64,000 nt of DNA, taken from positions 1 to 64,000 of the forward strand of contig JBEWZL010000236.1 of assembly GCA_045837725.1 (NCBI GenBank), written 5' to 3'. Made by a program: the position numbers and the translations under genes. The notes under the pieces are model-generated. The model was not told where the DNA came from. It did no database searches and saw only the letters and a program-made list of their open reading frames with translations. Source of the DNA: Vermamoeba vermiformis. Its lineage: Eukaryota. The first letter of the stretch is position 1. Every line of letters starts with the position of its first letter. This document shows positions 3,137-35,857 of the stretch, piece by piece.

Positions 3137-3499
3137 CGTGCCACATAGTTTATGCTAATAAATAAATGCTTGCGGCTCCAAATTGTTATATTTATCTAGA
3201 GCACGTGCTTTTAGGGAAATTTAGCAAAGCGATAAAAATGTTCGAACGATTACAATTATTTATTTCTCTATTCACAAGACTACATATTTATTTATCGTTG
3301 TTTTAGTTTTTCTCGTTTATTTTGTACGAGATTAACAGCTACAACAATTGCGGGGAGAATCATTTATTAGATTGAACCGCTGTTGCAGTCCCACCGCAAC
3401 GAGAAGTGATAAAATAATTTCAACAATATTATCACAAAATATTAACAATATTACTGTGATAACAATCAGGCCTAAATATAAATTATCACCAAATCCAAA

Positions 3500-6321
3500 A
3501 TGAGTTCTGTTCAGATCCAACCGCCTAGCCCAGCAGGCAGCCCTAAAACTGCAGTAATGGGGCCTAAAATTCCTAAAGGACCAGGAGCACCAAAGAAAGC
3601 CGGTCAAGGTAGACCTCTGCCATCACCTACAAACAATCCACAAACAGTCGGGCCGAAAATACCCGGATCAACACCACCAATTCAAATTCAAGTCCCAGCA
3701 GGCAACCAAAAGACCAATAGTCGAAGTCTTCCTAATAGCCCGCCTACAATTGTCAGTGGAAACGTTGCAAAAATCGAATCTCGATCGGCTGCCGTTAGTC
3801 CCGCTACAAGTCCGCGCAACACCGAACTTTCAGACCCCAGTAGTCCTCGCATGCGTCCCAAGCCACTACCTAAAGCACCGGTACGCAAGACCAATCACGC
3901 AGAGACAGATCTCGAGGCAACTCTAAGTCCACGCAATGGTCCTTCATCCTCGCCTATAACCAACACTAATACGCATGCGAATACACCTCCTATGGCGGTA
4001 TCACCTCCACCTGTTAGAGTCACGCCACCTCAAGACGTAGAAGTTTCAACCTCGCCCAAACCTAACGCATCCGCCATTGCCATGCTGTTAGCCGCAGAAC
4101 AAGTATGATCGCTTTGCAATATAGCATATATATGTTATTGTTTACGGATCTAATGATTTTAATTAGGTAACTGGTGCTAAAATGACCGGCTACAGAACGC
4201 GAATTGTCGATGAATTGCTTAAAAAGAGCAGGAGGTCAATTTATGGTAATTATGATTACTGAAGCATGTGCATATGTTTGAATGATACTAATCTAATTAA
4301 TATAGCCAATGACGAGCTTGTAAAAGGAGATGCGCACGAAGATCAGAAAAAACGATGTCTTACAGTCACTGAAATTATTGAAAGTGAGAAAGCGTTCTTA
4401 AAGAATATGACTTTAGCTATAGAGGTACTATAATATATATCATAATACCTTACTTGCAATACTAATGTACCGTCTTAAATTCTAGCATTATTATAATCCT
4501 TCTAAAAATGGCGAATCTCCGGTGCCTGAAAACAAAGCTAAAATGATGTTTAATAATTTGGAACAAATCATCGAAGTTTCAACGGATCTGCTTCAAACAA
4601 TGTTCGACAAGATCCCGAATGATTTCGATTCTTCAGTAGGCGTCGGAAACATCTTTGTACAGTTCGTAAGTATATATTAATATTATATATGACCTATTTA
4701 TCTCATTTTTAATATATTTAGGTCCCTCGATTCAATGTATTCGATGAATATGCAAAATTACATTATCAAGCTATCAAAACATTCGGTCAATTAGAACGTA
4801 AAAAAGAAGTGGTGCAATATTGGAAAGAATTGCGCGAACGAACAGGAGTCCTTGATATTATGGCACTATTGATTATGCCCGTACAACGATTTTTAAGGCA
4901 TAAATTGTTATTAGAGGCAAGTTTTTGGATCTGTTGCGAACTCGTAACTTTGCAACGATTTCTGACATTTCCTTTTTAGGAATTATTGAAGCGAACACCA
5001 GAAGGCCATCCTGACCATGAGGACGTAGTGAAAGCAATTGGTGCGATCGATCAATTTGCACAGAGTGTCAACGAAAACGTCAAGCGACACACAGCTTTGC
5101 AAAAATATAACGAAATTGAACGCAAGTTCGGATTTCCCAAAGAGGTATGTACTCAATATGACACTATTTTTAGCCCAAGGCACGTGTAACTTAACCTTTT
5201 CTGCTCAGTTGGAGTTGCCCGAAGGTTCCGAAGACATTCGAGTATTTATCAAAGAAGGAACATTGATGAAAGTGTGCCGCAAAGAGCCCAAGCCGAGATA
5301 TTTTGTATTATTTGATGATTTGTTAGTCTACGGCGAGTCTGGTGTCTTGTCTTACAGTCTGCATCGATGTTTGGATCTGTCAAAAACTTCGGTCAAAGAT
5401 GTCGAAGACACCTCAGGTACGTCGATAATATCTCATTGCCTAATTAAGTCCTAATTACCAAATATAGTTATGCAAAACTCTTTCGAGATCTACAGCACGG
5501 GAAAATCGTTCGTGGTGTTTGCAGACAACATTGGAGAGAAGAAAAGTTGGCTCAATTCGTTCAAACAAGTCAAATTGCTCGCTGCAAACGACAATCAAGC
5601 GGCTATTTGGGTCAACGACAAGATGTCAAAGTGTTGTTTGAAGTGCGGCCGTGAGTTCAAAGCACATTTCAGACGCGTAAGTTGTGACCATTGTGCCACT
5701 GAGTCTAGGCAGTATATTAACTCGTCTTCATAGCATCATTGTCGTGCCTGTGGCCTATTAGTCTGCTCCAAGTGCTCGCCTAAAACAGCCATTGTGCCGT
5801 CCGTGTCCGCGACCAGCAAACAGCGCGTGTGCAACAGTTGTTTCGACGACATTGCTAACGGCATCACACCCAAGAAAGGTACGTATTACAAACGAAACTA
5901 TATCAAGACAACGGTCTTATTATTATACTACAGCTTCAGCACATATTCCCGATAATGACCTGAGTTCTGAAGATGATGACTCGTCCTCTGAAGGTGCGTG
6001 AAAAATATCATTTTTTTTTCATCTTTTTTCTGATTGGTCGTCGATCACGTGCTTATTTAATCATATCTAGATGACGCACAAAAGCTGTCGAGATCACAAA
6101 CGAGTCCTTCGTTGAACTCGTCGGGCGGAAGCAACAAGTCCACCAGTGCCTCGCCCGATGTCAATCGTACCTTAAAGTCCCCCGAGACGCACAAAAGAAG
6201 CAACACGACTGTGCCGCCGAGCAATGGAACGAATACAGATAATGTGAAGAAAAAGAACACGTTTGCCAATCTGTTTACGACACTGCGCGGGGCAGGCAAA
6301 AAGAAAGAAGGTGATCAGTAA
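3500..6321 (+). CDS. FGD-like RhoGEF: Pro-rich N-terminus, DH, PH and FYVE domains
   Basis: DH motifs EIIESEKAFLKNM and LIMPVQRFLRHKLLLE; PH motif FIKEGTLMKVCRKEPKPRYFVLFDD; FYVE motif WVND..CLKC..F..FRRHHCRACG..VCSKCS..RVCNSC. Multi-exon. Confidence 0.9.
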
Positions 6322-7919: not shown

Positions 7920-9637
7920 TTAGTGCTCAACCACTACCACTTCAGGCTTCTCGTCGTTATCTTTTTCAACGCTTGCCAGTAACATTTGTTCTTGCAACTT
8001 TACCACTCGCATGAACTCTTCAAGCTTTGCTTTCACTTCATTGGCAGTTTCGGGTCGTTTTGTAACCAATTTCTTCTGGATGCCGCGGGCTTGGGCATCT
8101 CTGGCAGCCATTTGATTTTTATAGTCAATAATATCCAAGCAAAATGCTGCTATTTGTGCATTGCACGTCGTAGATTTAATCTTGGCTTCTGTTAATTTGT
8201 CGTTCAAGTCTTCCAAGCTTTGAATCATTTCTCTGAACATGATCTGCGCACAAACAACCGCAAAACTGTACAAATCGGTAACAAACGAGTACTTGTTATG
8301 CAATTCAACGTCCGATGCAGTCCATATATCCATCACTTTCGCTTTGTAGGCTTCTTCGTCGTCTTTAGGAGAAAAACAGGGCAAGATCGCATCTCGCGAC
8401 ACCAATTTCGCCAATCCAAAATCTGCTAGTTTCAATAGCATCACGTCTTTGTATTTTGCAACATGATGGTCCTTGATGAAGAGAATATTGCGGGGATTGA
8501 TGTCACAATGAATTACGGCTTTGGCGCCGGGAATTTTAAACTGAATAAAGCGCAATGCAGCTGCCAGCTGTTTGATATATGACAATATCTCGCGGTCCGT
8601 TAGTTCTCCGATTCGGTCGGCCAAAGCTTGAAATTGGGTTAAAAAAAAGTTGCACGCGGATCACATCCCAACTTACAACAATCACAAATTTCAGCTTGCA
8701 AACCAGGCACGGTGTCTGAAGTAGCATTGAATTCATATACTTTCAGTATGTTGTGGTGGTTTAATTGCCGCATAATTTTGTATTCTTCGTAGAGATCTGT
8801 AGTGTCAGTTAAGATCTTCTTCAAAGCGTATTTCTTCCCGTCTTTTACTACTTGTCTGACTATTGAATATGATCCACGTCCTTTTATGTCATCGACTTCC
8901 GATTCTACTTCCACTGCTAGGAGTTTTTGTGATTCTTCGGGATCCGAGTTGATTTTTTCTGATTTTTTCGAGTTTCTAGTGCGTTTAACGATCAGATAAA
9001 CAGCAGTAACTGCCAAAGATAGTACTATCACCGCTATAATGAGATACATTGTTATGTCTGTTTCAGATTTTGTGAACGGGCGCTGATTTCCCGACGTGTC
9101 TGCGGTTGGTGTTCGCGCTGTTGGTTGGACTTGAATTGTAGGCGCCTGCACGGATTGAGGCACAGCAATTGGAGGACTCTGCAGTGGCGCGTTGGGCTGG
9201 ATGTACCAGCATCTTTGAATTTTATTTGCTGTGCAGTCGTAATTCTCCGCTCCTTCACAGGAATCAACTACGTCAGCCACGATGACCAAGACGGAGGTGC
9301 AAGCACCATCGCTGTACTGCCACAATATTGAAAAATTTCTTCCGCTTCCGTAGCTGATCAAGGATTCGTTGAAAGATCCCTCCGTTGCAGGACAAGATCT
9401 CGTCGTATAAATTGTTTGATTATTCCTTAGTTGAGGGGCACAGCCAGAACCATAACAGCTTTTAGGGTCGAATACCAACTCGAGAGTAAATTCAAATATA
9501 TCAACCTCGCATTTTTTTTTTGTCCCAAACCGTGTTAGCTGAACTATTCTAATAGTTAGTAACGCAAAATAATATAACTACATACATAAACAATTGGCAC
9601 CAACTATCAGGAAAAGGAGAATTGTGTATTTTAACAT
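7920..9637 (-). CDS. Receptor-like protein kinase (signal peptide, Cys-rich ectodomain, TM, kinase)
   Basis: ATG at 9637 (MLKYTILLFLIVGANC), followed by a phase-1 intron. TM YLIIAVIVLSLAVTAVYLIV. Kinase motifs GRGSYS, YALKK, HCDINPRN, DFG. The two ORFs in the track are joined by an intron at about 8627-8676. Confidence 0.85.
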
Positions 9638-9788
9638 GGCGTGCGTTTCAAGTGTCAAAAAATCTTTGGTGGTCATTATTTAATACAGTTAGCTTCTGAC
9701 GACCATGAAACTCTGTATTCGAATATAATTTCAACACTATATTTTAGAAGCGCTCTTGTAATAATTGCAAAATATTGGATCCTCCGAA

Positions 9789-11545
9789 ATGAAAAGAACA
9801 GCAATTCTCCTTGCCATTTTATCACTTACCGTCAGTGCCAACTGTGAATGTAAGCGCATTATTGTATCAAATTAAAGACTGTCCTTTTTTATGCAGACCG
9901 ACTCACACGGATGGGAACAAAAGAGATGTGCCTGACTGACGTTAATCATATTGTGTTGGAATCGATGCCAGAAAACTGTGTCGAGACAGAATGTCACCTA
10001 AATGGAGCAACATATATGACAACAACGTGCGATGAATCAGTGGGGTCATTCAACGAATCTCTCATCCAATACGGCGCTGGCAAAAACTTCACAATAGGAT
10101 GGTATTACACAGGCCCGACTTGTACCGACGTCAATGCAATTGAAGCGAAGGAAGTTACTTCTTGCGAAGGAGCTGCAAGTTTTGTATGCCAAAACGGCCA
10201 AACTAAATTTTGCTCCTACATCCAACCGCACGCTCCACAGACAGTGCCTCCGATAACCGTAGGGACTCCAGTACCCGTAGTTACACCGCCTATTCATCAA
10301 CAAGACCCTCCTATTGCTCCGTTAACCGAACCATCAGCACCGAGTCCGGTGGAACCTCCAGTAGTTCAACAACAATCCCCAACAGCTGTGCCAAGTGATG
10401 AGCGGCCACTAACGACATTTGAAAAGCTTGTAGTTGGATTCTCGATGGGTGGCTGGGCCGTGGCTGTTCTGTTCGTCATTCTCTACATCTACCAACGTCA
10501 ACAAACCAAATCCCACAACTACGAACCGCTGATTGAAGAACATGATCCAGAGCCACCTAACCAACCAACTGTCATTACCTCCGACAACAAGAATGCATTT
10601 AAACCGATCTTGCAAGAGAATAAGTCGCGGATGCAGAGCATTCCCCCATCCGAGTTAATTATCGACAAAACGAAGAAGCTCGGAGAGGGTCAAGCGTGCA
10701 ACGTGTACCAAGGATTTTGGCGCCAAAAGAAAGTTGCCATTAAAATTCCACGAGACCGCGACGCCGCTAAGCTCATGAAAGAATTGACAGTGTTTAGCGA
10801 AATAGAACCGCATCCAAACATTATCGAAGTCTTTGGATATTTTGAATACGAGGATAGGCTATGCATCGTGTTAGAACTATGTAATTGCCCAAGTAAGTCG
10901 AATTATTATGAGAATTCGGACGCTAACGAGAAACCAGATCTGGAGCAACTAGCCAAGCAAGAGTTGCCTATCAGTGATAAGTTCAATATCGCCATGGGTA
11001 TTGCTGCAGGCATGCTACATCTACATCACGCAAAACGACAAGTTATTCACCGAGATTTAAAGCCCGGCAACATCCTTGTTACGAGATCAGGAACGCATCT
11101 AATTCCAAAAATTGCAGACTTTGATTACTCGAGGTTGTTAGCCTCACCAACAGGCGTTACATACTCCACTCCTACCACCAGCTATGCTGCGCCAGAACAA
11201 TTAGCTGCCTCAGCCACCGCTAGAAAACAGTACAGCGTCAAATCTGACGTTTGGGCTTATGGCGCAACTTTGTTCTATTTATTAACTGGTCAAACTCCTT
11301 TTGCAGTTCAAAACTCGAGTGCTTTGAAAACGCAGCGATTGAACAAGCAAGCTTTGGTCAGATTCGAACTGCTGGATGCTCTTCCAACGGATCCATTCAC
11401 CGCGCTGATGGTAGATATTACACGCAAATGTTTAAATGACGATCCTACTAAGCGACCTGCATTCGACCGCATTGATTCTGAATTTGTAGATTTCTTCAAC
11501 AAGTTTTATCCGCACACCGCTAACAATAACAACGATATTCAATAA
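9789..11545 (+). CDS. Receptor-like TKL-type protein kinase, paralog of the divergent neighbour
   Basis: ATG at 9789 (MKRTAILLAILSLTVSANCE). Cys-rich ectodomain, Pro-rich stalk, TM. Kinase motifs GEGQAC, VAIK, HRDLKPGN, DFD, APE, SDVWAYG. In-frame 45-nt intron at 10893-10937. Confidence 0.9.
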
Positions 11546-11704
11546 AGAATAGCACTATTTTCACGTAAATCTCATCTCTGACAAAGAAATTGTCTCGTAA
11601 TAGCCCAAGCAACAACAATCTCTTCTCGTAGTCGGGTGGGCACGAGTTTTCTTTAATTTCCTGGAATTTGAATTTTGTTACTCGCGCAGGCTGGTTTATT
11701 ATTA

Positions 11705-14700
11705 TTATTTTACAATTTGTGTGAGTGTTTGTTGCTTGTACACGTTAGTTTTGTTTGGCACGACTTCAGTCAGGTCCTTGAGCGGTTCCAACAAGTAACT
11801 AATGACCGGAATAGCGAATGAATTGCCGAGCATTTCTTTGCGCTTCGTGTCCGAGTAATCATTGCACTCTGTGTAGCCCGATGGAAAGCCCAGCAACCGT
11901 TCACATTCGGACACTTTCAACGGCTTCAATTTGCCGTCAGCTCCGAGCACTGGATCGTAACGCGGGTTCTCGAGTCCCCATTCAACGGACTTGTCGGTGA
12001 ACTTCTGCACCGTGTTGTGTGTCGTGATGCAGTTCAGTTTTTCACGAAGAGCAATGCGATCTTGACTGAGGTAGAATTGGGCCTAGTGTTCAAGTTAGCA
12101 CTTTGCACGCGTGTTTGGCAATGTCTAGGACTCACGTATTGTTTCTCGGGATTTGACGCCTGTAACGGTCCCGTGCGCGGAATGTTCGTCCAATAATATC
12201 TGTTTCTGTGCGCACCACTCACTTGTGCCGCGTCAATTTTGACAGGTGACACGCCAAGGCAGTTTGAAATCTCGTCCTTGTCTTGCCGTCGCATGCTCGC
12301 TACATTCTCAAACAAGAAGAACGGAGTCTCGCCAGGATGTGACTCTTTGTACCACTTGAGAATCTTTACGAACTCGTAGAACAATCTACTTTGGCTGCCC
12401 TTCAGACCCTCTCTGCCTTTCTGTGAACAAGACACGTTAGTAAGTAGCACGTGCAAGCTCAACATGACGTCAATCAACGTACCTTCAACACAGACAAGTC
12501 ATTGCACGGACTGCCAGCAACAAACAAAGTGATCTTCGGCAAGCGTTCGACATCTTCCTTCGTGACTGACGTGATGTCCCAATCAGGGCCCACGCGAATG
12601 TACTTCACTGGCGGGCTTTTAGTCTCAGCAGCTCTTGAATGAATGTCAGTCACAGGGTATAACCAAATAAAGGCACCAACCTCTTTCTGATATTCATTTG
12701 CACCACTTGACGGCAATCAGAATCGATCTCGCAGACATAGTATTTTGCTACCTAAAGAGAACAAGCTCGTCAGTCAAAGAGCACTTTAACTATCACTCAG
12801 TACGTACGTTGATGCCGACTTGTTGCAATGCCACTAGTGCTCCACCAATGCCGTCAAAGCCTGAGAAAACATTGATTGGAGAATGGTCGGGCGGGAAGAA
12901 CATTTGACTGCACGTCTCGTAGAATTCTTTAGGACTGCAGCGCTGACTAAGTTCTTTCATGTTGTCAATCGGCTCTTGCGAGAACTGACTTAGCGGTGAG
13001 GAAGGATCGATTACAATCTGCTTCCTTCGTTTCTTTTTGGGTGAGGGATTATGTATAAGGCTGCCCTGTGATGGAGCTGAGGCCTGCAAGAAGGTGAATC
13101 AAATATAACTGGCAAAATATCAACTAGTGTACGTACTTGAGGGTGACTACTCGCAGGAGAGTCAGTGGGCATGGGCACGGGACTAAACTCCTCATCAGAG
13201 TCGAGAGAACTGCTCGAAGAGATTTCAATCATCTCCTGGAACTTTCTTTTCTTAGCGTTGATTGGTGACTTTTCATGAGAGTTGTAGCCAGAGAAGTACG
13301 GCTGCGTCTCTTGTATTTGCATGGGCACTTGTGGCTGGGGTTGCGTGGCAATGTCGAGGTTTCGGATGTGGGCGGGGGTGCTTGGTACCGAAGAGACATC
13401 GATCACTTCAGGCACTTTTGGTTGAGGCGGCATTTGTGATAACTCGGCGTACTGATCGTACAGTTGAGAGAGCACTTCATCAGGCAGCTCATCGACAATG
13501 TATTGAGATGGCACCTCGACTACTTCGTGCTGTGACTGCCACGGTCGAATATCGTCTTTGGACTGGTCCAACTCGCTGAAACTTTGATTAACTTCTGCTT
13601 CTTGTTCGGGCAAATTCTCGTCGTGGTCCTGTTGGTTTTCTTCGACGTAAGCCTCTTCTTGTGCTCGCCTCTGCTGCTGTTGTTGCAAGAGAGGGGTCGG
13701 AAGTATGGCTGCCAGTTGGCTGTCAGTGACTTGCGAGGCATCTGCTTGCGAGGAGAACGACTCTGACGACAAGCGCAACGGATCACTGTGTTCACTGTAC
13801 ATATTATTTACAAATGGATCGTTGGGCAAGTCGCGGAGTGAGCTCTGCAGCGTGGCAAGCAGTGGATTATGCTGTGGCAAGGGAAGAACTTTCTTACGGA
13901 CAGGACTTGGGCTCGTGCCAATGTCCTCCACTTGGAACATTTCCGCGGTTGCCACTGTGTTCGTTAGCTGAAACTTATTGACATAATTATCAAGCAGCTG
14001 ATTCCTGTCTGATTTCTCGGGTGTGTTTTTGTCGAATTGCTGCAGCACTGGCTGGATCTGCTTGTCCTCGGCGTGTCCTTCTCTTGAAGGGTAGTCGTTG
14101 TATTCTTGTTCCGAGTAGTAGCTGACTTCACCTGTCAGAACACTCACGTTGGCGTGGTAGTACCCAGCGGGTTGTGCGGGTAGGATTGGTTGAACCTGTT
14201 CGGTTTCATAATGCTGTGTCTCCGAGTTCGCGTACTCGTCACCAAGGTTCGAGTACTCCTGATACTCCACACTCTCCTCGACAGGTGCTTGATCTTTTTC
14301 GGCTTGAACGACCTCCTGAACTTCTTCATCGTCAACGTCATACACTTGATGTCGCTCAGGGCTATTTCTAGGTGTCGCACTGGCACTGTTAATTTCTTGG
14401 ACTTCTTTTTCATCCTCCGAGTCATCGTCCAACACGACATTCTTCTTGGGCGTTAATTTATTAATGGGCATTGGTGTGTAAGACGTTAGCCGAGGCTCGG
14501 ATTGGGCCTTGTTCTTCAGCCGTAAATCGAACATTTCCTTCGACCTTGGCGCTGAAAAACTACTCGCTTTGATTGGTGTGATGCCAACATGTGATCGCGA
14601 GGCACCACTGAACTTGTAACCTGCGTCTTTCATAGTGTCCAACATAGCAAATGGCGATACTGTCTTTGTTTTGCCTGGTGACGCAGTGGTTGTGACAGTA

Positions 14701-16296
14701 ATGTCTCCAGGACTAGAGCTAGCGACACGTGAAGTATTAGTGTTATTGTTATTGTTGGTGTTCGCGGGTGGGTTATTGCTTTTTTGTGGTGCTGTGTTTG
14801 TGGTTGACGTCGCCACTGTGTTTATCCTCGGTGCCTCTTTTGGCTTGTTGGGACTTTGTAACACTGCCCGTGGTGCGGGTGAATCTGCCGCCTTTCCTTT
14901 TGGCTCGGTGGATGGCTGCAAGGAATGCTTAGCTATCACAGAATTTACAATGTGCGTTGGTACTTTAATCACGGGACTATCAGTTGACGGAGTCAAGGAC
15001 TGTGACTCATTGCTGAGGTTATTGTTGCCGGCTCGTTGTCTGTCTTGATTAAGCTTGTTTTTGATCTCTTGTAACTTCTCTTGTGAAGCACGTCGCTGTG
15101 AGTCACGTGATCTTGTTCTCGGTCTGCGGACCAAGTCCTCGTCTTCGCTCTCGTTACTTGACTCCTTCGAGTTACTACTCTCACTCTCGCTTTCAACTTT
15201 AACTTCTTTCTTTACTTTCCTCTCGTGTTTAACTACCTTCTCGTGGGACTTCTTGACAGCGACACTTTTTGTTGTGCCTTGCTGGTTCGACTTCCTTTTG
15301 GACTCTGTCGATGACCGCCGCTTAGCAGGTGACGGCGGACTGCTGTCATCGATAATATTAAGCTCTGTGTCTTTTTTGGTTTTCAACATGAAATCACGCA
15401 GCTCTATTATCTTCAAGATGTCGTGACCAATTGTAATCTTCATGACTTCACTGAGGAACTTGGCGTCGAGCAAGTGAATAGAGCTCTCGCGTATTTCATG
15501 TTCCACGAAGATATTGACGTACTTTTCAATTTTAGCGGGTGTCCACTCGTCTGGTTGTTGCGAGAAGAAGTGCAGCCAGTACTCCCGCAGCTCGATTGGA
15601 AAATCCTCTTTGACAAACTCTTCCGATTTACGAACAGGATCTTTGTCGCAAAATTTTAATTTCGTTGCTTTGTAGTACTCTTTGAAGTAGTACACATTCG
15701 GATCGCGTTGTTCCTTCGAAGAGAGGGCTTTGTACTTCTGGTACGGCAAGACACGCACTTTGCCGGTGACTAAATGAGCAGGATTTTCGTCCATCATATC
15801 ACTTGGAAATAGCTCCCGGGAACCACATTTACGGTTGATAACTAAAATATTGGATTAGCGATCGAGTATGGCTTCGTATTTGCTTCTTCATCGATGAAAC
15901 TCGCCAAAAACCTCTATGAAAACTTACCGTCTGCAACATCAGTCGGCTTATAGTACCACCGGATGCCGAGCTGCGGCTGATCGAATTTGTCGCGCCAAAT
16001 GGATTCTAGGAAAAACGATAATATTTTAGCATCGCGTAATCGGTAATAATTATTAAAAATATGCTCTAAATTATCTCTACGCATGAAAATAATTTACAGT
16101 ACGATTTATGGATTAAATTATTAATATTAGGTATTTTCTTACTTATTTGACCAATGTACGGAGAGTCATCCTTGCCACTCCACATATAAACTCCATCTTT
16201 TACTGCGTATTCAACGTCATCTAAAACTACACTGTTGTAATAGGTGATCTCGCCGATCTGTTTAATGATCTCTGCAGCACGCCAAACAACATTCAT
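11705..16296 (-). CDS. DNMT3: DNMT3-type C5-cytosine DNA methyltransferase with N-terminal BAH and SAM domains
   Basis: MTase motifs VFSGFDGIGG, EID, GSPCNDLS, SRLFYEF, FLFENVASM, IDAAQVSGAHRNRYYWTNIP, ERLLGFPSGYT and LGNSFAIPVISYLLEPLKD are DNMT3-like. BAH: DGVYM..PYIGQI..IW..IRWYYKP..RELFPSD..ENPAHLVTGKVRVL. SAM: KYVNIFVEHEI..LLD..L..MKITIGHDILKI. The 13084-13136 intron joins the long ORF to the MTase in frame. Confidence 0.9.
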
Positions 16297-16477: not shown

Positions 16478-18301
16478 TTACAATTCCTCCAAAGGAATGT
16501 CACGGCCCTTGTCTTCCTCGGCGTGGGCAGTACGCAACTCCTTGACGCGAACAAGACCCTTGCTCCACTCATCAGGAGCAATCAAGACAGCGCGGTTGGC
16601 ACCAATACGATCAGCGTAGTTGAAGCACCAAGGGATCTTCTTGCCAGGGATCAATTGAACTTCAACGGCACGACCCTTCTCGCGCAACCTGAAGATATGA
16701 ACGTTAGCACAAAGTAACACGCGGCACGGGCAATGCACTTACTTGTTGGCGACTTGGTAAGCATTTACTCGCATAGCCTCGTCATAAGCAATAACAATGT
16801 CATCGATCTCAGGAGGAATTTCAGTGTACAAGCCCTTCTCCTTCAACAACTCGACAATGACGCAGTCACCGAAGCCAAAGCCAGCAGCGGGAATTTCAGT
16901 CTTGGAACCGTACAACGTCAACAAACCGTCGTAACGACCACCTCCGCAAATAGCACGCAATTGGACCTGATTGTGAATGTTAGATAAACGCTCTACTTGC
17001 ATGTGTCAAGCTACTTACAGGAGGCTTGGCAAAAGCTTCAAAGACAATGCCAGTGTAGTAGGCGAGACCACGAACAACGGAGGCATCGAATTGGAGCCAG
17101 TCCTCGAAGCCGTAGGCCTTGGCGTATTTCCACAAGTCACGGAACTCAACCATGACAGGTGAGTCCTTGCCGAGGACCTCTTCCAGTTGGCTCAAGTCCT
17201 TGATAGTGAGAGTTGAGTTGATCTTAGCAATGACATCTTCAGAGAGACCGAGTTCAGCCAACATCTTTTGCACGGCTTCAGCTTCCAATTTGTCGAGCTT
17301 GTCAACGATAACGCAGACAGGGGCGAACTTTTCCTTGGTGACGCCGAGAGGCTCCAAAACATTTTGCAAGACCTTGCGACTGTTAATCTTAATGCCGACA
17401 TCCTTGCTGGTCAAGCCCAATGACTTGAAACAGGTGGTGATAGCTGCGAGCAATTCAACTTCAGCAGTGACTTCCTTGACACCAACAATGTCCATGTTCC
17501 ACTGGTAGTGCTCGCGCTTGCGACCACGAGTGGTGTTTTCGTACCGCCAGCATTGAGGAATGGAGAACCAGCGGATGGGCAACAAAAGGTTGCGACCAGT
17601 CTTCAAAATTAAACGAGCAAGTGTAGGGGTCATTTCAGGACGAAGAGTAACGTTGTATTTGTCCTTGTCCTAGTATTTTGTAAAATTAGTGATAAGAGCT
17701 CTTGTTGTACGAATGAAAAGGTCCTACCTCAAAGTTGTACATTTGTTGAGTGATTTCTTCTCCAGCCTTTCGCTTGTAAAGTTCTTCGAGTTCCAAGATA
17801 GGAGCGTCATATTCCTTAATTGAAGCATTTTAATACCGCGATCCGATCTGCATCAACCGAGTCGACTTACTTGGAAAGCAAAGCGTCTAGCAGCTTCTCT
17901 AAACTTGCCAAACAACCAATTTCGCATTCTCATATCGACGGGGAGGAAATCTCGAGTACCAATGACGGGCTCGGTTTCAATAATACCTAAATAAATGGAT
18001 GTCAGTAACCGAATTTTGCATAAATATTTTCTGCTAATAAAACTTATTAAATATCATATTATTGATATTTATTATGATTTTAGAAGCAAGGAAAAATTAT
18101 GAGCGAATTAATTTTGAATTTTAGGATAAATATTTAAAATTTTCAAAACCGCCGCTGTTTTTAACTCCTTATACCTTTCTTTGCGTTACGACCACGCTTA
18201 GACTCATTAGTATTTTCTCCCTTCTCCTTCTTCTCCTTCTTGGGTTTGTTGTCAACGGGATTAGCTGCCTGATCTACTTTCTTCTGTTCGTTATTTTCCA
18301 T
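16478..18301 (-). CDS. hisS: Histidyl-tRNA synthetase
   Basis: Motifs [57 protein letters not shown] and GFGFGD, plus the anticodon-binding domain. Multi-exon. Confidence 0.95.
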
Positions 18302-18434
18302 GTTTGATTATGTGTCTTTATCCAAACTTAATTATAAAATAATAACGCGACAGCCGGCATAAACGGTTTTTTTTCCCTTTATTTTCGCAGATCCACTTTT
18401 TTTGCTGCCGCACAACAAATGTCCCTTTCGGCTA

Positions 18435-20294
18435 TTATGAAATCTTACGAGAAGTCATAATTAACGCGAGTTCTAGAAGCGCTCTCGTGACCAACAAATG
18501 TCCCTCTGACAGTGGGTGTGCGTCAATTTCATTTTTCAGACCAGCGCCAAATCCACAGACCAGGGTGTCCCTATTGACATCAATATGAGATACAACTATT
18601 ACCAAATCGTAGTTCCCGGTACCTTAATGCCCATTTCAGTGTTGTGTAAGTCTCATCCAGCTCTGCAAATCCTGTGGCACCGCTGTTAAGTGACTCATCA
18701 CCAGCGAGTGCCAACACGAGCGAATTCTTCTCCACATTCATCCAGTCCTCTTTTTTCTCTGGGAATGATTGATCCAAGTCACTGATATTGAACGCCATGT
18801 CGAAGTCAAGTGGTGCAAGGAAAGGATCTTTCGCTGACGGACGATCGGACTGAATTTTTCGTCAGTACTTTAAGTTAACTGAGACGGTCAACAAAGATGA
18901 CTTACAGGAGGCAACAAAACGAAGTTATTTGGATGCGCGTTGCAATGAAATCCTAACAAGTCTTCGTAGGTAGCCCAGCTAATGTTGTTATTGATCATAA
19001 GATGTTGAACCCATCCTGCTTCGTAGCCTAGTCGCCAATATATTTGTGCTAAGAGTGACAATCCTCCGCTAATAATATCGACTCATTAAAATCACTATCG
19101 TGATGCGTACTTTAATCGTACCTTGATGGCAAGTGTTCTTTTATGATTTTACTGTTGTTCTCCCACGACATTTTAAACTGTTCTGGCACTCCCTCCGGCA
19201 CTGCTCCAACATCACTGCCTGTCTCGTGAATCAGCCCGTTGTGCTGCATCAAATTAAGCTTGTTCTCATAGTCTTCAGTCAATAGTGACACCCAAGTCTC
19301 CATCAAAATTCCGTCTTGCGCACGTGTCGATGGAAATTTCGAAATCAGTTCTTCACGATTAATGTTCTTGACTATAGTCGGTAATAACATTTCTAAACCA
19401 ACAATCACGTGGTCTCCTAGCCTTCTGTCGCTGAAGGTTTCAAACAGGCCGCAAAACTTTTTAATTTTTGTGCACGTGTCGCTTGGCAACTTATACTGAT
19501 AAAATCCTGAATTATAATAAGTATATCGCGGTACTATGATATTATATTACCTATGGGTCTGTTTGCGATTGGCTTGTTGTGCTTCACGAGCAATTGTTCG
19601 ACTTGGCCTGTGAAGTACAACTCACGAAAACATGTCTGTTCGAACATCACGCCTCTAACTTCATTAAATTCTCGGCCCTTGTAGCTCCTATTTAAGTAGC
19701 ATATATTAGTTAATGTCGTACTTATTAAGAGGTGAGTCTCGTACGAGTTTTCTAAGGGTCTTCGCTTAATAACAATTCCTTGGCCTAAATTGCCACAGCC
19801 TTTCAATCGATAGTACTTGTCATTAATATGTACAATGGCTGATCTAGCACCACTTTGATAGCCTCGAATGTCCGTCTCTGCTTTTCAAATTAATACACTA
19901 ATTGGAAATTTCAAGTTCAGGAATTCGTACCTGTATCGGTCTTGATCAGAGGATGACGAATAGGTGTCGGTAGATTATCGTCAGATAGTGTAACTCCTTC
20001 TTTAGCGAGGATATCAGGCGCGGGAATGCCCGGGACTGGAGAAGAAAGTACAATTAATTGAAAATCAATGCTAAAATTTTAGAAAAAATCCTGGGATAAT
20101 GGCGTACCAACAAACTCTTTATACTCGTCGCCGAGGTGCTCTTGAGGTAAAAATCTTAATTTTTCTTGCTCCGTGAATGTCTTGCGAATTTCAAACGCAT
20201 CCGTTGAGAATGCCGCTGCTTCGCCTTCGCATTCTCGAAAATATACCATCGAAGCTCCAAAATAGAGCTCTTTATTGACTTTATGTTGTTCCAT
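18435..20294 (-). CDS. Atypical kinase-like (SelO/APH-type) predicted pseudokinase
   Basis: Eight exons splice into one open frame containing SGARSAIV..YYRLKGCG..RGVMFEQTCFREL, DRRLGDH, FHCNAHPNNFVL and LAPLDFDMAF. Stop at 18435. Confidence 0.6.
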
Positions 20295-20401: not shown

Positions 20402-22027
20402 ATGTCAAATAGAGGTAAGCAACTCGCTCATTAAAGGCGTGATGGAATCGAGATCCGATATTTTTCTCATTTCTGAAGACCACCTGACATTTAATTATTA
20501 ATAAGACATCTAAATTACTGGACTATGAAACAATAATTTCTTAGATTTTTTCTAAAAATTGTATTAGGCTGGGGACAACCAAATTCTGGTTCGAGAGGTG
20601 GATGGGGCCGTGGAGGCAGTCAATCCATTCAATATAACACTAAGCCAAAGACTACAAATACCAATGACTCATCGAACACTAATGACACAACCTCGAGCAC
20701 CTCGAATAATAATTATCGTGGCAATAATAGTTCTCGAGGCCGCGGTGGAGGTCGAGGAGGACGAGGACGAGGAAATAACAGCACTAATAGCTATAATAAC
20801 AATAGTAATTATAACAATAACAATAATGCTGGTCGAGGACGAAATAACAATCAGCCTCGTACAACGAAAAAACAAGCAGTTGTGATCGATTACACTCAGC
20901 CTTACAAAGGTAAGCCCCAAAAATATTACTAATACGAGTATATACTGACTTCATTAACAGGACTCGAGAAAATTGTTTCGGGAGGTGAAACAGGAGCGGA
21001 TCGAGCAGGTCTTGAGGCTGGTGTTGAGCTCGGCATCGCTACTGGAGGTAAGAAACAATACAAATATGTATAATTTGGTCGAACTAAACGAATGATCACC
21101 AGGCTTCGCGATGAAAGGCTTCAAAACTGAAGCTGGGAATGATCCGTCTTTGGCAGATCTCGGAATTGAAGAAGAATTCAATATTCATAGCTTCAGCGAT
21201 CTCTCCTCGTTAGTGCGTATTATTAATCCATAATCCGGTCTTCATCCGAGCTCGGTTGCTGACTCTATTTTTAGAATGCTGAATCCGCTGACGCAACACT
21301 AGCCTTCAGACTGCACGACAGTAAAGGCACTGATCGGACCATTGGATACTGCTTCGATCGAGTGTATTCCGAGAATGGCTCGTATCGCATTAGAAGTTCA
21401 GATTGGTGCTACAAGCCAGTGCTGATCATTACTAGTTTGAGTGACAAGGACCAAGAGAAGAACGAAACAGACATTAGGAACTTTGTGATTAGGAATCAAA
21501 TTCGCGTGTTGAACATCGCTGGTCATCGCGAGTCAACTGCTGGCATTGATAACTTCGGTGAAAAAGTTCAACAATTGCTGGTCAGTGCTCTGACACCTGT
21601 CATCAAGCCTAACGTAGAATCGCTGGAAAAACTCAAAGAACAAGGCATTCAAATTGAAAAGGGAGAAAAACCAGCACAAACAAAAGAACACAAGTACGAA
21701 ATTGCAGCTAAATTTAGACCATTTGTAGTCAACTCGAAGAAGACCAAAGACTACGACGTGTATATTGGCAGACCTTCTAAATGGGGCAATCCGTTTGTGA
21801 TTGGCAAGGACGGTGATCGATATGACGTGTGCAAGCAGTTTGAAGAGTGGATCTTGACTCAGCCCAAGATGATTGCTGAGGCCAAACAAGAACTCGCTGG
21901 CAAACGTATTGCGTGCTTTTGTGCGCCACTTCAATGCCACGGCGAGACATTAGCCCGCATTGCTAACTCTGATTATGGCACAGAGGAGAAAAAGCAGACA
22001 AATAACACTAACAAAAATGTAAAATAA
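20402..22027 (+). CDS. RGG/Asn-rich N-terminus + circularly permuted YpsA (SLOG, MoCo-carrier-like) domain + DUF4326 domain
   Basis: Five exons. cpYpsA: KIVSGGETGADRAGLEAGVELGIATGGF..N..ADATLAF..SKGTDRTIGYC..KPVLII..VLNIAGHRES. DUF4326: DVYIGRPSKWGNPF..ELAGKRIACFCAPLQCHGETL. Confidence 0.85.
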
Positions 22028-28229: not shown

Positions 28230-29418
28230 ATGAGCACATCTGGCACTATGCAAAAGACTTTAGATTCCTTCTTTGGTGGAGGCAAGCGAGCTGCGACTGA
28301 AGCTCCTGAAGGGGAGAAAGCTCCCAAAAAACAAAAGACCGACAGTGGCGATAAAACTAAGGCAGCCGTAGACGACAGTGATTTGGATCCTGTTGTCGCC
28401 GAGTATGTGGGCTATCTGCAAGATCCTGGTTGGAAGGAAGCACTTATGCCTGAATTTAAGAAGCCGTATTTTAAACAATTAATCCACTTCATCAAAGGTA
28501 TTATCGCATTTTTTGCTAATTATGAATATTTAAATATTTTTTTTGACCGTTTTTTTGTGATTTCCACTAGGCGAAAGAGATCGAGGCGCTACTGTTTATC
28601 CTCCTACACCTCAAATATTTAATGCATTTAACTACTGCCCTTTGGATAATGTAAAAATCGTCTTGTTCGGTCAAGGTAAGCTGACATTTGATATGCTGAT
28701 CACGCGACGCGAGGCTAACTCCCTTTGTAGACCCATATCACGGTCCTGGTCAGGCGCACGGACTTTCATTCTCTGTTCAACACGGTGTGCCTCCTCCACC
28801 TTCATTGAAGAACATCTACAAGTAAGTTCTGCGGTCAATCTGGTCTCTGAGCATTGATCTTACCTCATTCTAAACAGAGAACTTAAGACCGACATCAAGG
28901 GCTTCAAAGAGCCCAAGCACGGTTACTTGGAGAAGTGGGCTCGCCAAGGTGTGCTGTTGCTCAACGCGGTGCTGACTGTCGAACGAGCCACGCCCAACAG
29001 CCACGCCAAGAAGGGCTGGGAACAGTTCACCGATGCTGCACTCAAGAAGGTTAACACTGATCGCGAGTCAGTCGTATTCTTCTTGTGGGGCAATTATGCG
29101 CAGAAGAAAGAGCCTTTAATCAACAAGGGCAAACATCTCGTGCTCAAATCTGGTCACCCTTCCCCACTCTCGGTCAAACATTTCTTGGGCTGCAAGCACT
29201 TCTCCAAGGCCAACGAATTTTTGCAAAAGAAGGGCTTGGATCCTATTGACTGGCAGTTAGATGTTGAAGACTCAGGAGCTGGTGTAAACGACAGCACAGA
29301 TGTGGAACAAACGCCAAAGAAAAAAGCACCCGCAGCTGCCGCTAAAAAGGCTGCACCGAAGAAGAAGGCAAAGGACGACTCCGAAGAAGCACCTGAAGAA
29401 GAGGAAGACGATGAGTAA
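28230..29418 (+). CDS. UNG: Uracil-DNA glycosylase, family 1, with N-terminal PIP box
   Basis: PIP box QKTLDSFF; motifs [29 protein letters not shown] and HPSPLS. Confidence 0.95.
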
Positions 29419-29683
29419 TTAAAGAGCATGTAATATTGTATTTATAATTTTTGGCGATTAAATAATTATTATTTCTAAGTAGAGCTTGAGATCTGCGCTT
29501 GATCACCGTTTAGGCACATCGTACCTTCGGCGAGCAACGGAATTGTTGTGCCAAATTCTTTTTCCTCAAATTGGCTATCGTTACTCGGAATTATTGTGGC
29601 CCTGGTAGAAAACGACAAGCATAAATAGCTAATTCCTGGGCGGTACTTTGCTACAAACATATCTTAACAATTAACACAACGCA

Positions 29684-31755
29684 ATGGCTGCCTTTGCTAA
29701 ATCAGTATTATTGGCTGAGACCTACGACGAGGAGATGGACCCCACTGGCTGGTGGATCTCGGAAAAGCTGGATGGTGTAAGTTGCTCTTTATCCTTCGAG
29801 CCTTTCCATAAATTAATTTATTATTATCAGGTTAGAGCATATTGGAACGGTTCTAATTTCTATAGCCGTTCAGGAAATATGTTTTACGCGCCCAAGTCTT
29901 TTACAAAAGATCTGCCAAAATGCGCGTTGGACGGTGAATTATGGTACGTAATATATTAATTGGCTCGGGTGGGAATTTGATCGTGGCTAACGAATATTTA
30001 AAACGGATCAGGTGCGGACGCGGTTTATTTCAAAAATGCGTTTCTATCGTCAAAACGAAGAAAAATGTTTCAGAAGAGGACTGGAAATATGTGACTTACC
30101 TCGTATTTGATGCTCCAGACCAACCGGTAATTGAATTTTTACTGATTTTTTTTTTAATCAAAGTAACCGTTACTGGAAATCAATCGTTTAAATTCGTTAT
30201 TTCGTATAAAAATAGTGCTAACTATTTACGATCGTGATGCTAATATGCAATTTTAGGGACCTTACGAAGATCGTGTCAAGTATTTGAAATCCATCATTAA
30301 CCCACAAAAGAAAACTACGTTTGCCGCTGTTGTTGGCATTAAAAAATGCGAGGGACCAGAGCACTTGCAAAAATGTCTTGATGAGGTCATTAAGCTCGGC
30401 GGAGAAGGTTTAATGCTTCGTAAACCTGGCTCCAAGTACGCGCACGGCAGATCCAACACTCTGTTGAAGGCAAGTTCAATTACTATTATCAATTAGGGTA
30501 TATTTACTAATAGACTACAATTAGGTCAAAACTTTCCACGACGAAGAAGCGAAGGTTATTGGCTACGAAAAAGGTGAAGGTCGCTTGGCCGGCATGATGG
30601 GCGCACTCAAATGTGTTTTGTAAGTGGCACACAGGGCTCTTATATAGACACAATACTAATACCCGACAGGACCAATGGTGTCGAGTTCAAGATTGGCACT
30701 GGTTTCAACGACGATCAACGCCGCAAGCCTCCCAAGATTGGTAGCATCGTGACCTTCAAGTACCAAGAACTTTCAAACGATGGCAATCCTAGGTACGTCG
30801 TAGTGTTATTCTATATTGCAGTGGGTATTAATAGCGCGTGTGATAGATTCCCTGCGTATTTGAGAGAGCGTACTGATGTCACTTGGGCTGATGTGCTCGA
30901 GGCCGCGAAGACCAAGCCGCCATTCAGCACCAAGAAGAAGGTCGTGCCTGCCTTGAAGAAACAACACACCATCATGTTTTCGACTGTTCCTTCGTTGGAT
31001 CCCGTAAGTACCTCGCCACTTGAAAGCATGCGCGATGTAACTAACTTGTTGGCCACTAGGAAACTGGAGAAAAAGTCGTGACTGAAGATGATGTTCACGA
31101 TGACGGAGGTAACGACAGCAACGATGAAGCCGATGCAGCCAAGGGCAACACTAAGACAGCCAGCAACGCCAAGCCTGCGTGCAAGTACGGTGCTTCGTGC
31201 TATCAAACTAACGCCGTGCACTTGGCCAACTTCTCGCACCCGCCCAAACCTCAAGCCAGCGCTCCTGCCACACCTAAGGCCGCGAACAACAACAAGAAGA
31301 GTGCTCCCAAGGACGAAGAAGAGAATTCGCAGGGCAGCGGCAACAACACCAACACGCAGAAAACACCGTGCAAGTTCGGTGCAGCGTGCTACCAGACTTC
31401 AGCTTTTCATTTGAGCAAGTACTCGCACCCACCTAAGGGCACACCTGTCGATGAAGGCGAGAAGTTGACGCAAGAAGAGATCAAAGAGTTCAAGGGCCTG
31501 GACGACGAGGACGACAATGCCAGCGCGCAAGAAGAGACCGTGACCATCTCCAAGCGCGAGTACGAAGACCTCAAGTTCCAGTTGCAGGCATCGGAAGAGC
31601 GCGTTGCTAAATTAGAAGAGATCATTAAGACCATTCGAGGCAGTGTCACTGATGTTGACACGAACAAGGGCACATCCGCGGACAAGAAGCGCAAGTTGGA
31701 TCAGTCCGCTGAAATGCCTCCTCAAAAGAAATCGAAGCCTAACAGCATCTTGTAA
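29684..31755 (+). CDS. Minimal ATP-dependent DNA ligase (Chlorella-virus/Lig E-like) with two C-terminal PBZ zinc fingers
   Basis: Motifs WWISEKLDGVRAYWNG, LDGELW, YLVFDAP, GGEGLMLR, GRSNTLLKVK, FKIGTGF and PRFP. Two CxYGxxCYxxxxxHxxxxSHP fingers, a coiled coil and a bipartite NLS follow. Confidence 0.92.
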
Positions 31756-34660: not shown

Positions 34661-35857
34661 ATGGTATGTCGTGCGACCTTACTACTCCAAACCTTCTAAA
34701 GATTTTATAGCCACGCTTTGCTGCGTTGCTCATCGGGGTGTCTGCATTTGACGAACCTGATGTTTTCCCTCCTTTACCTGGCGTTACAAACGACTTAGAA
34801 ATTATGAAAACGTTGGAAGAATACGGATTTGAGGTGCAGTCGTATTTGAATCTACCCAAGAAGCAAATCTTGCAGAAGATCGAAAACTATGACGGAGAAG
34901 TATTGGAAACCTTCGTACTCTACTTTAGTACCCATGGTACATCAAAGGGGAACATGGGGTACTTAATCCCACGAGATGCTCGGGGTGGAAAGAAAAACAA
35001 CGTCGTTCTAGACACCGCCATCTCAGCAACAGAAATCATGGATTCTCTTGCTGGCATTAAAGCAAAGCGAAAGCTTTTGCTTTTGGATACTTGTCATTCT
35101 GGTGGCTTTTTTAAACTCAAGAACATTTCCAAGGCTCCCAACCAACTGGGTAAATCCGGATTAAATTCTTTCATCGAGCGAGCCAGCGAGCAGAATTTCG
35201 GGCAAGGAAGAGGATTGGCCGTAATTTCTGCGGCGCGCAACGGCGAGGCCGCAGTTTGCGAAGACGATGGCAGCGTTTTCACGAAGAGATTCGTCGAGAC
35301 ACTCCGTTCAATTCCAAAAGATCAGATCATGCTCTTCACCCTAGTAAAAAAGCTACAAAAGGCTATGGAGAATGATGCACATATGCCAGTATTTAAGTGC
35401 GACAATGTCACCGAAGTCTACGCTTGGCTAATTGCCCGTAACCCAAACTTTGCTCAAATTACAGTGCAGGAGGAGCATAAGGAAGCAGCAGATGCTACTC
35501 CAACTGCACCAACATTAAAGCGAAAGCGCTCAGAATTTGAAGACAATGAGAAGCCTCCCCACAAAAAGAGCAAAACAGAGGCTGCGTAAGTGAATCCGCT
35601 GGACGAATTATTCTAATTATTTTGATAGTTGCTTGCACAAGAATGCCGTAACTAAGAAGTCTTATACTGAGCGTAATCCAGGAAAATACTTTCGTAAATG
35701 TCCAGATTGCAATCACTTTGAGTGGCGCTGCCCTGAATTGTCTGATAAATCAAAAGATCAGCTTAAGAGCTTGTGCCAAGAGATGAATCTTAAGCGAAGT
35801 GGTACGAAAGCCGAATTGCGCGATCGTATTCTTGTCTCTTACAAAAACGCGATGTAG
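34661..35857 (+). CDS. Caspase-family (peptidase C14, metacaspase/orthocaspase-like) protease fused to a GRF zinc finger and a SAP domain
   Basis: ATG-only first exon. Protease motifs ALLIGV, LPGVTND, YFSTHG and LLLDTCHSG. NLS KRKR-x11-KKSK. A 43-nt GT-AG intron (35586-35628) splices in frame to CLH..NPGKYFRKCPDCNHFEW (GRF) and QLKSLCQEMNLKRSGTKAELRDRI (SAP). Confidence 0.85.

Follow-up and report, generated by a model that had tools for sequence, protein, structure and literature searches.

Proteins that adopt the protein-kinase-like (PKL) fold but lack its catalytic aspartate have repeatedly proved to do new chemistry, as exemplified in passages of PMC10870513 by AMPylation (SelO), glutamylation (SidJ) and RNA transfer (NiRAN). 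Part of PMC3281104 describes MchC as a remote SelO subfamily with a variable HGx catalytic motif and the MceI/MceJ complex as modifying the C-terminus of a peptide, a microcin. In type II CBASS (cyclic oligonucleotide-based antiphage signalling systems), Cap2 (E1-E2) conjugates a cGAS-like enzyme through its last residue and Cap3 (JAB) releases it again, according to sections of PMC10097602. Here we describe a gene from Vermamoeba vermiformis that invites comparison with these systems. It is situated on the minus strand at 20294-18435 of contig JBEWZL010000236.1, the first 64,000 nucleotides of which make up the window analysed, and encodes a kinase-fold protein with Asn in place of the catalytic Asp; an original prediction made from the letters alone had presented it as a hidden, SelO-like pseudokinase. 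We see an even chance that the protein is an active, non-canonical nucleotide-dependent transferase of the PKL fold that works with E1-like enzymes, a chemistry suggested by its conserved residues. What is new is a kinase-like-fold family that combines an unusual active site with an unusual partner.

An expressed gene of eight exons

Splicing of eight exons on the minus strand gives a frame of 1476 nt with a single terminal stop, translating into a protein of 491 residues. The start codon ATG is found at 20294-20292 and the stop codon TAA at 18437-18435, and all seven introns (7/7) are of the GT..AG type and 44-72 nt long. These limits are exactly those originally predicted, and the eight-exon structure has been confirmed by the reading frame, by homologues and by the RNA of relatives. 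The gene is made up as follows:

20108..20294, minus strand: exon 1, residues 1-62 plus 1 base; alignment with homologues begins at residue 1
19931..20035, minus strand: exon 2, residues 63-97; an X1 contig piece spans 19931-20036
19745..19880, minus strand: exon 3, residues 98-142; SGARS at 19854-19840 and RLKGCG at 19809-19792 (beta3 Lys, K124)
19551..19687, minus strand: exon 4, residues 143-188; RG at 19656-19651 and RE at 19626-19621 (alphaC Glu, E165)
19122..19506, minus strand: exon 5, residues 189-316; DRRLGDH at 19429-19409; X1 contig piece 19122-19507
18906..19068, minus strand: exon 6, residues 317-371; HCNAHPNN at 18947-18924, with Asn360 at the position of the HRD Asp
18623..18849, minus strand: exon 7, residues 372-446; LDFD at 18810-18799 (DFG position) and invariant E411; X1 piece 18622-18849
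18435..18570, minus strand: exon 8, residues 447-491 plus TAA; the conserved C-terminal helix, then a tail of six residues with Ser at its end (18473-18438)
20107-20036, 19930-19881, 19744-19688 and 19550-19507, minus strand: introns 1-4, GT..AG
19121-19069, 18905-18850 and 18622-18571, minus strand: introns 5-7, GT..AG

Exon 5, the largest, was used alone as a query and retrieved two database proteins, P0001 and P0002, out of 101 candidates. P0001 is a fragment of 264 residues that is 86% identical to residues 228-491 and runs uninterrupted over joints 5, 6 and 7, while P0002 is a full-length relative of 541 residues. The spliced protein aligns with many homologues of about 480-500 residues, from residue 1-9 through 491, and joints 1, 4 and 7 fall inside conserved motifs without insertions or deletions relative to these homologues. 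Intron 3 is in frame and open, so that its retention would add 19 residues; it was taken as an intron because 94 of 115 homologues are already shorter at that place.

The RNA evidence stems from relatives and not from the exact sequence of the window, namely from three raw RNA sequencing runs of a related organism and from one contig set (X1), the record kind of which is given only as 'RNA?', a guess, and which shows 1 to 16 differing letters per aligned piece. The X1 contigs skip intron 5 (19068 joined to 19122, 53 nt) and intron 6 (18849 joined to 18906, 56 nt) exactly, and they also skip intron 7 (18569 joined to 18622, 52 nt) and intron 4 (19507 joined to 19556, 48 nt skipped with 4 letters between, net 44 nt). 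Loose RNA ends at 19550/19551 match exon 5, and intron 3 is seen as a loose end at 19744 that continues with exon-4 sequence. The acceptor of intron 2 (19878-19882) is a NAGNAG, at which X1 skips 53 instead of 50 nt with exon 3 starting at 19877; the relative's transcript takes the AG 3 nt downstream and one Ala codon is lost. At joint 1 (20036-20113) the X1 contig lacks 1 nt relative to the model (76 nt skipped, 3 letters between, depth 4.1), which we attribute to an error in the contig or to the relative being different here; the donor is supported by 10 raw RNA reads of X10 whose match stops precisely at 20108 and gives way to exon-2-like letters. RNA reads across 18371-18512 cover the end of exon 8.

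All of the 40 best-supported differences (40/40) are located in exons, 34 of the 40 at codon position 3, and 35 of the 40 are synonymous. Such a pattern marks a protein-coding sequence under purifying selection. An expressed gene with eight exons, the locus encodes a protein of 491 residues; we regard it as practically certain that the gene is real and that its product has a PKL fold. Judging from its sequence, the protein is probably cytosolic, with neither an N-terminal extension past the conserved core nor a mitochondrial presequence.

Active site and fold of the family

Together with its homologues the protein makes up an undescribed PKL-fold family that has no Pfam model; the family occurs widely in protists, rotifers and a sponge and is nearly absent from prokaryotes. 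A search with P0002 gave 147 relatives at E<=0.001, 120 of which are listed. A profile built from 81 relatives (A1) matched 1299, 851 and 397 cluster representatives at E<=1e-3, 1e-10 and 1e-30, respectively, among 1.84 billion (50% clustering). Named members occur in Thecamonas, Amorphochlora, Balamuthia, Physarum, Pelomyxa, Reticulomyxa, Paramoeba and Anaeramoeba, and furthermore in diatoms, dinoflagellates, bdelloid rotifers and the sponge Oopsacas; all are annotated as 'hypothetical' or with a transferred MOCS3 name. One genome for each of 185,579 prokaryotic species yielded only two loci (L019 and L020), and the viral contigs scanned yielded zero relatives. Pfam and NCBIfam hold zero models that match the family; Pfam run on six exon-level open reading frames (ORFs) gave only a chance match to XylR_N (E 0.16), and neither P0002 nor profile A1 retrieved anything but noise from the sequences of the PDB (A1: E 0.39-0.45). 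A full-text literature search retrieved no account of the family or of a pairing of kinase fold and E1, though the KINtaro table and the supplements of a 2026 bioRxiv survey of PKL proteins may list it; part of the KINtaro paper (PMC10870513) reports 32 PKL families unknown to Pfam. The parts consulted of a 2006 survey of E1/JAB neighbourhoods in prokaryotes name no kinase-like partner of this kind.

Every motif named in the original prediction is present, i.e. SGARS (107-111), RLKGCG (122-127), RE (164-165), DRRLG (215-219), HCNAHPNN (358-365) and LDFD (385-388), and the expected conservation among homologues was found as well, the motifs being near-invariant in an alignment of 121 sequences to which all of the following counts refer. 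In the Gly-rich loop S107 is present in 106/121, G108 in 109, R110 in 110 and S111 in 109 sequences (11 gaps); in the beta3 stretch R122 is present in 111/121 and K124, G125, C126 and G127 in 112/121 each (9 gaps). R154 and G155 occur in 115/121, E165 in 112 and R217 in 120. The catalytic region features W348, D353, H358 and N360 in 120/121, H362 and N364 in 119 each and N365 in 120, followed by D386 and D388 in 119/121, E411 in 118 and D448 in 116. The window protein keeps all these residues and is off consensus only at I133, S214, I223 and A349. The replacement of the catalytic Asp by Asn holds throughout: Asn360 equals the invariant N350 of homologue P0004, the one sequence without it has a gap, and no family member among the 121 has Asp at this position.

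About 20 polar residues that line the predicted active site are invariant at an overall identity of about 30%. A dead pseudokinase acting as a nucleotide-binding switch or scaffold would agree with the absence of the canonical catalytic Asp, and many pseudokinases keep nucleotide binding. The invariant residues, however, include both metal ligands, His358, His362, Asn364, Asp353, Asp388 and Glu411, and such conservation exceeds the usual need of a binding scaffold; moreover, the other Asp-less members of the fold named in the part of PMC10870513 on this topic all proved to be enzymes. We consider a dead pseudokinase very unlikely. The label 'pseudokinase' thus appears apt only with regard to the missing catalytic Asp, while the conservation argues for an active enzyme. 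A real enzyme is suggested by the invariant R110, R154, R217, H358, H362, N364, D353, D388 and E411 around the site, and on this pattern catalytic activity is likely.

How might such an enzyme work? ATP-Mg would be bound via Lys124, Glu165, Asn365 and Asp386, a set that is near-invariant and whose strand and helix places in a model of P0004 fit the canonical kinase order. Since the catalytic loop contains no acidic residue, Asp-assisted phosphotransfer to a hydroxyl most likely does not occur. The protein would be an active ATP/Mg-dependent enzyme and not a dead scaffold, and it may perform a non-canonical transfer, either nucleotidyl transfer of the AMPylation type or carboxylate activation, instead of Asp-catalysed phosphotransfer; chemistry other than phosphotransfer is slightly favoured by the residues at hand. 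The enzyme would operate in a common pathway with an E1-like adenylyltransferase that activates C-terminal carboxylates. Alternatively, the kinase-fold domain could itself modify the C-terminal carboxylate that the E1 activates, which would fit the action of MceI/MceJ on the C-terminus of a microcin.

The same complete Lys/Glu/Asn/Asp set for ATP-Mg binding would also serve an atypical phosphotransferase, be it a small-molecule or protein kinase that uses another base (His362 or Asp388) or an enzyme of low activity like the HRN-type receptors. The strict occurrence of Asn360 over very distant eukaryotes, never replaced by Asp, speaks against this explanation, on which the structural neighbours of the family also bear.

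The fold was modelled on P0004 (477 residues, 37.5% identical, full-length alignment) with profile A1, and the AlphaFold model reached a pLDDT of 95.4 and a pTM of 0.94. In this model SGxRS is placed between the first two strands of the N-lobe, the Lys closes the third strand and RE resides in the long helix that follows; HCNxHxNN is found between two short strands after a long helix of the C-lobe, and DFD follows the next strand pair. Foldseek against the PDB gave zero rows at E<=0.001. Its weak rows comprise aminoglycoside and choline kinases, WaaP, Bud32, PAK1 and YdiU/SelO, and the top ones among them (aminoglycoside and choline kinases, WaaP and Bud32) fit a phosphotransferase. VIA-align against 48,161 representative chains found 180 chains with Z>=8, the best at Z 13.0; among the best 50 of these 180 rows 47 are protein-kinase-like and three are NIS (NRPS-independent siderophore) synthetases. 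With these rows and with motifs at the Gly-rich loop, beta3, alphaC, catalytic-loop and DFG positions of the homologue model, the kinase-like fold that had been proposed is well borne out. The top rows are Bub1 (13.0; 4.4 A, 239 residues aligned), BubR1 (12.7) and Bud32 (12.2; 3.1 A, 186 aligned), and SelO from P. syringae (6eac, 11.9; 4.6 A, 251 aligned) and WaaP (11.3) are found further down. When the 999 best Foldseek chains were re-aligned, rank 1 was taken by E. coli YdiU with AMPNPP (6lna_B, Z 12.8, 4.5 A, 246 aligned), tied with PRPK (12.7; 3.4 A, 195 aligned), BubR1 (12.6) and Bud32 (12.2).

Bud32/PRPK (KEOPS) and Bub1/BubR1 are thus tied top structural neighbours of the family model (Bub1 13.0, BubR1 12.6-12.7, PRPK 12.7, Bud32 12.2), but they match it from residue ~61-87 only, that is in the core and not in the N-terminal extension, and have no relation to the family in sequence or ESM features. 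These kinases keep the catalytic Asp. The NIS siderophore synthetases (IucA/IucC family: SbnC, IucA and AsbB) show the longest alignments outside SelO (249-266 residues, Z 9.6-10.0), with Z lower than for kinases and SelO, no sequence relation to the family and another domain make-up. They adenylate carboxylates without a catalytic Asp base.

A probable partnership with E1-like enzymes, and the C-terminal end

A precomputed ThiF domain is present in 12 of the 120 listed relatives, and Pfam run on the 30 longest forms identified N-terminal ThiF in 13, rhomboid in two, ADH, acylphosphatase and MYND in one each and nothing in 12. With a local ThiF hidden Markov model, ThiF fusions amount to 20 of 211 family proteins, equivalent to 20 of the 27 with an N-terminal extension of >150 residues. 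The fused domains are of the generic MoeB/ThiF adenylation type with invariant nucleotide-binding motifs, and no NCBIfam equivalog matched them at cut-off. On a FastTree phylogeny of 187 kinase-fold domains the fused state needs six changes, at least four of which are forced by well-supported branches, compared with a mean of 19.2 changes when fusion states were shuffled (0/500 shuffles as low as six). The association with ThiF thus arose or vanished more than once and cannot be put down to an accident of one lineage. It sets the family apart from SelO, and we know of no ordinary kinases with E1 fusions that recur in this manner, which counts against a phosphotransferase. So does the finding that the nearest named relatives by structure and learned features are SelO and MchC, which are not phosphotransferases. 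All in all, we hold an atypical phosphotransferase to be unlikely.

Functional coupling to an E1-like enzyme, as part of the preferred reading of a non-canonical transferase, is quite likely for the family as a whole and somewhat better than even for the stand-alone copy in the window. The model of one fusion protein, P0077, has a pLDDT of 73.2 and a pTM of 0.63, a moderate confidence that allows no statement on the relative placement of its two domains; prediction of a complex between its ThiF half and its kinase-fold half gave no verdict (score 0.00, with the alignment unused by the prediction).

The two bacterial loci agree with such a link. L019 is a 7.5-kb contig (1-7551) from a metagenome-assembled genome (MAG) of Aminicenantes with tightly packed genes on one strand. 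It encodes an E1-like protein of 612 residues (ThiF 1.1e-29, weak PADLOC 'E1-E2' matches) that matches MoeB, PaaA and MccB, an ORF of 142 residues with an HxN...C motif and a protein of 669 residues in which the N-terminal 150 residues are JAB/JAMM, followed by a kinase-fold domain with all motifs. The JAB part has an intact metal motif and matches the PADLOC JAB model (7.9e-5) and Rpn11 (4.7e-9); the remaining genes are a membrane ORF and a gene for a VWA protein. The E1-like protein possibly contains a pair of ThiF-like repeats, as Uba1 matches it at residues 10-81 and again at 329-416, and the arrangement as a whole resembles an undescribed ubiquitination-like or defence operon. L020, a contig from a MAG of Cellvibrionales with ordinary bacterial neighbours, encodes within 3136-5680 a family member that is membrane-anchored by N-terminal membrane segments, together with the ORF next to it; the gene of the family member is interrupted by 10 N in the record. 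The next ORF encodes 225 residues with a match to Peptidase_C78, the UFM1-protease family (E 1.4e-4).

In 80 metagenome loci ThiF was found only as two further fusions (L044 and L095), and queries from L019 and L020 detected no JAB, E2, VWA or C78 neighbour there. Pfam run on the 12 loci densest in genes (69 ORFs) pointed mostly at ordinary eukaryotic neighbours from intron-poor eukaryotes, and one of these loci, L041, was uninformative. An unlinked ThiF gene in L046 and a rhodanese gene in L065 are located nearby; we take both as chance neighbours. L041, a contig of 67% GC, carries an ORF of 1367 residues (10816-14916) that combines an ADP-ribosyltransferase domain with the membrane region of a neurotransmitter-gated channel; a family member without the usual C-terminal end is located about 6 kb away.

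That end is another conspicuous trait. Family proteins end six residues past the conserved helix. Of 211 proteins, 131 close with Ala, 29 with Gly, 10 each with Ser and Thr and six with Cys, this final residue being preceded by Ile or Val in most cases. Only two of the 211 extend >30 residues beyond the domain, both resembling bad gene ends, and all 27 large extensions are N-terminal. Ser is the last residue in the window protein, in its 86% identical relative P0001 and in both bacterial members. A subgroup ends in Tyr (...TKY, ...TAY, ...TSY), including members on the intron-poor eukaryotic contigs L046, L049 and L065. In the P0004 model the last block has a pLDDT of 88, and the tail follows the helix.

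These features allow a comparison with type II CBASS, meant only in the sense of 'works like'. In each case an enzyme that uses nucleotides, or in the family probably does so, and that has a small conserved C-terminal residue is associated with E1-like and JAB domains, which in the family applies to the ThiF fusions (20/211) and to the single locus L019 but not to the window. As stated in sections of PMC10097602, the last residue is a conserved Gly or Ala in 1,583 cGAS proteins from operons with Cap2 and Cap3, is not conserved in operons without Cap2 and Cap3 or with a Cap2 lacking the E2 domain, and a change from Gly to Ser abolished cGAS conjugation. On the other hand, the CBASS enzyme has a Pol-beta nucleotidyltransferase fold instead of a kinase fold, and the family is mainly eukaryotic with the E1 fused in cis and no E2 confirmed, unlike the E1-E2 protein Cap2. 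PADLOC models match only the E1 and JAB parts of L019, and these weakly.

It is conceivable that the enzyme itself is conjugated, i.e. that its C-terminal tail is adenylated by a fused or separate ThiF/E1 and then attached to a target or thiocarboxylated. The kinase-fold domain would then be regulated catalytic cargo, as the cGAS of type II CBASS is for Cap2/Cap3. In agreement with this, the C-terminus is fixed in length with an Ala/Gly end in 160/211 and almost never extended, fused domains always sit at the N-terminus, an E1 gene accompanies the fusion of JAB and kinase fold in L019, and the part of PMC10097602 cited above reports the same Gly/Ala end in operons with Cap2 and Cap3. The tail, however, is modelled fairly confidently after the helix and may simply pack on the body of the protein, the window protein and both bacterial members end in the very residue, Ser, that abolished conjugation of cGAS, and ThiF is fused in only 20/211, alongside a single bacterial operon and no ubiquitin-like protein, E2 or E3 confirmed. 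We judge self-conjugation to be unlikely. A wider form of the idea, for which the analogy with CBASS is the basis, would be a eukaryote-wide kinase-fold counterpart of 'cGASylation': the SelO-like enzyme would take the role of the ubiquitin-like moiety, a fused or separate ThiF would adenylate its tail, and the enzyme so tethered or primed would make or transfer a nucleotide-derived group. In the bacterial form represented by L019, taken as ancestral, a JAB peptidase would undo this. The whole scenario is doubtful, and we rate it low because the tail may pack on the body and because Ser is not tolerated in cGAS.

Relation to SelO, gene surroundings and significance

It is likely that SelO and MchC form the closest known branch to the family. 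SelO/YdiU (PF02696) and the family have a motif order in common that comprises a Gly-rich loop with Arg, a beta3 Lys followed by G-x-G and R/G...RE at alphaC, and both feature an 8-residue catalytic loop that starts with His, ends with Asn and lacks the HRD Asp. The Asp of ..TDN in E. coli SelO (D246) corresponds to Asn364 of the family (119/121), an equivalence by motif alignment and not by superposition; this Asp reportedly has a catalytic role in E. coli SelO. The family differs from SelO in having DFD instead of DYG at the DFG position, in two long inserts, one separating beta3 from alphaC and one ahead of alphaE, and in lacking a mitochondrial presequence and the C-terminal domain of about 150 residues with the Cys/Sec end.

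Chains of the SelO family reach Z 11.4-12.8 with 243-256 residues aligned, and all seven SelO-family entries align from residue 2 to ~447 of the P0004 model, being alone in doing so, as minimal kinases start at ~61-87. Among the 30 nearest clusters in the ESM Atlas 24 are unnamed (the three shown are all eukaryotic) and six are named 'MchC protein', with PF02696 on 35% of members; when the comparison is limited to named clusters, PF02696 is present in 25 of the 30 nearest (score 0.94; 184-189 of 256 features in common). The nearest named cluster is MchC/MceJ (score 0.94, 189 of 256 features). MceIJ is ATP-dependent, and an action on C-terminal carboxylates fits the E1 link of the family; MchC is, however, bacterial and paired with an HlyC-type acyltransferase and not with ThiF. 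For the N-lobe and the catalytic region alone, hhalign found colinear, non-significant paths (E 0.17 and 0.35) that pair the Gly-rich-loop Arg, L-K-G-x-G, R/G...RE and the catalytic loop of the family with those of SelO.

Several observations weigh against the reading as a non-canonical, SelO-related transferase coupled to E1-like enzymes. The model on which the fold rests is that of a homologue and not of the window's protein, and profiles link the family to no kinase family, as 0 of 81 members match any kinase-clan Pfam model at E<=10. In structure, SelO does not stand apart from PRPK/Bud32 and BubR1, which score within 1 Z unit of it, and its root-mean-square deviation is high (4.5 A). None of the 81 members matches PF02696 even at E<=10, full-length hhalign of A1 gave a probability of 0.1% against E. 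coli SelO and of 0.2% against a SelO profile, and against MchC of E. coli CFT073 it gave 1%. The SelO profile is shallow (17 sequences, effective number 3.8), made from 13 plasmid-borne genes together with proteins of E. coli, Citrobacter, Salmonella and Kosakonia, and a large search from E. coli SelO gave only near-identical enterobacterial relatives (>=79% identical). Asn at the position of the HRD Asp does not on its own exclude phosphotransfer: according to part of PMC3281104, ErbB3, with Asn for Asp, retains residual activity as a low-activity example, a point in favour of a phosphotransferase. As to the E1 link, the window protein is unfused and tblastn of ThiF domains against the 64-kb window found nothing below E 0.28; the bacterial E1/JAB context is one locus (L019), where a PDB search found no E2 match for the 142-residue ORF, so that an E2-like reading relies on the HxN...C motif, and the Peptidase_C78 match in L020 is below the Pfam cut-off. 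Finally, the window protein ends in Ser and not in Ala or Gly. The term 'SelO-like' from the original prediction therefore stands in part: top or tied rank in structure, ESM features and a colinear motif path support it, while the Pfam and full-length hhalign results do not. We consider it plausible but unproven and do not file the family under PF02696.

Upstream, a divergent neighbour (20402-22027, plus strand) has its start codon about 107 bp from that of the kinase-fold gene. It encodes an RGG/Asn-rich region followed by a circularly permuted YpsA SLOG domain (2.2e-6) and DUF4326 (5e-24), and its first intron (about 20415-20567) is spliced out in an X1 contig. This combination of SLOG and DUF4326 is not found beside the family in the 80 metagenome loci. 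Directly downstream of the stop codon resides a small Lys-rich ORF (18161-18307, minus strand; 48 residues as listed, 46 from ATG). Other ORFs of the window encode leucine-rich repeat, PH, protein-kinase, histidyl-tRNA synthetase, tetratricopeptide repeat, uracil-DNA glycosylase (UDG), PBZ-finger, caspase and C2H2/BET domains. At 7923-11542, 28858-31752 and 34711-35586 three ORFs for protein kinases, one of the UDG family, a DNA-ligase OB domain with PBZ zinc fingers after it and an ORF with a caspase domain were noted. No tRNA and no Rfam family was found in the window.

The family is large, has no sequence relatives in Pfam, NCBIfam or the PDB and bears a strict and unusual signature (HCNxHxNN, DFD, KGCG). 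Should its chemistry prove to be new, as has been the case for other kinase-fold proteins without the catalytic Asp, a reaction would be added to the kinase fold, and a ubiquitin-like regulatory step common to many protists, rotifers and sponges could be revealed. The repeated tie to E1-like enzymes provides a concrete pathway hypothesis in which a C-terminal carboxylate is activated or modified. If the doubtful counterpart of cGASylation were true, it would represent a new form of enzyme regulation in eukaryotes together with a new chemistry of the kinase fold.

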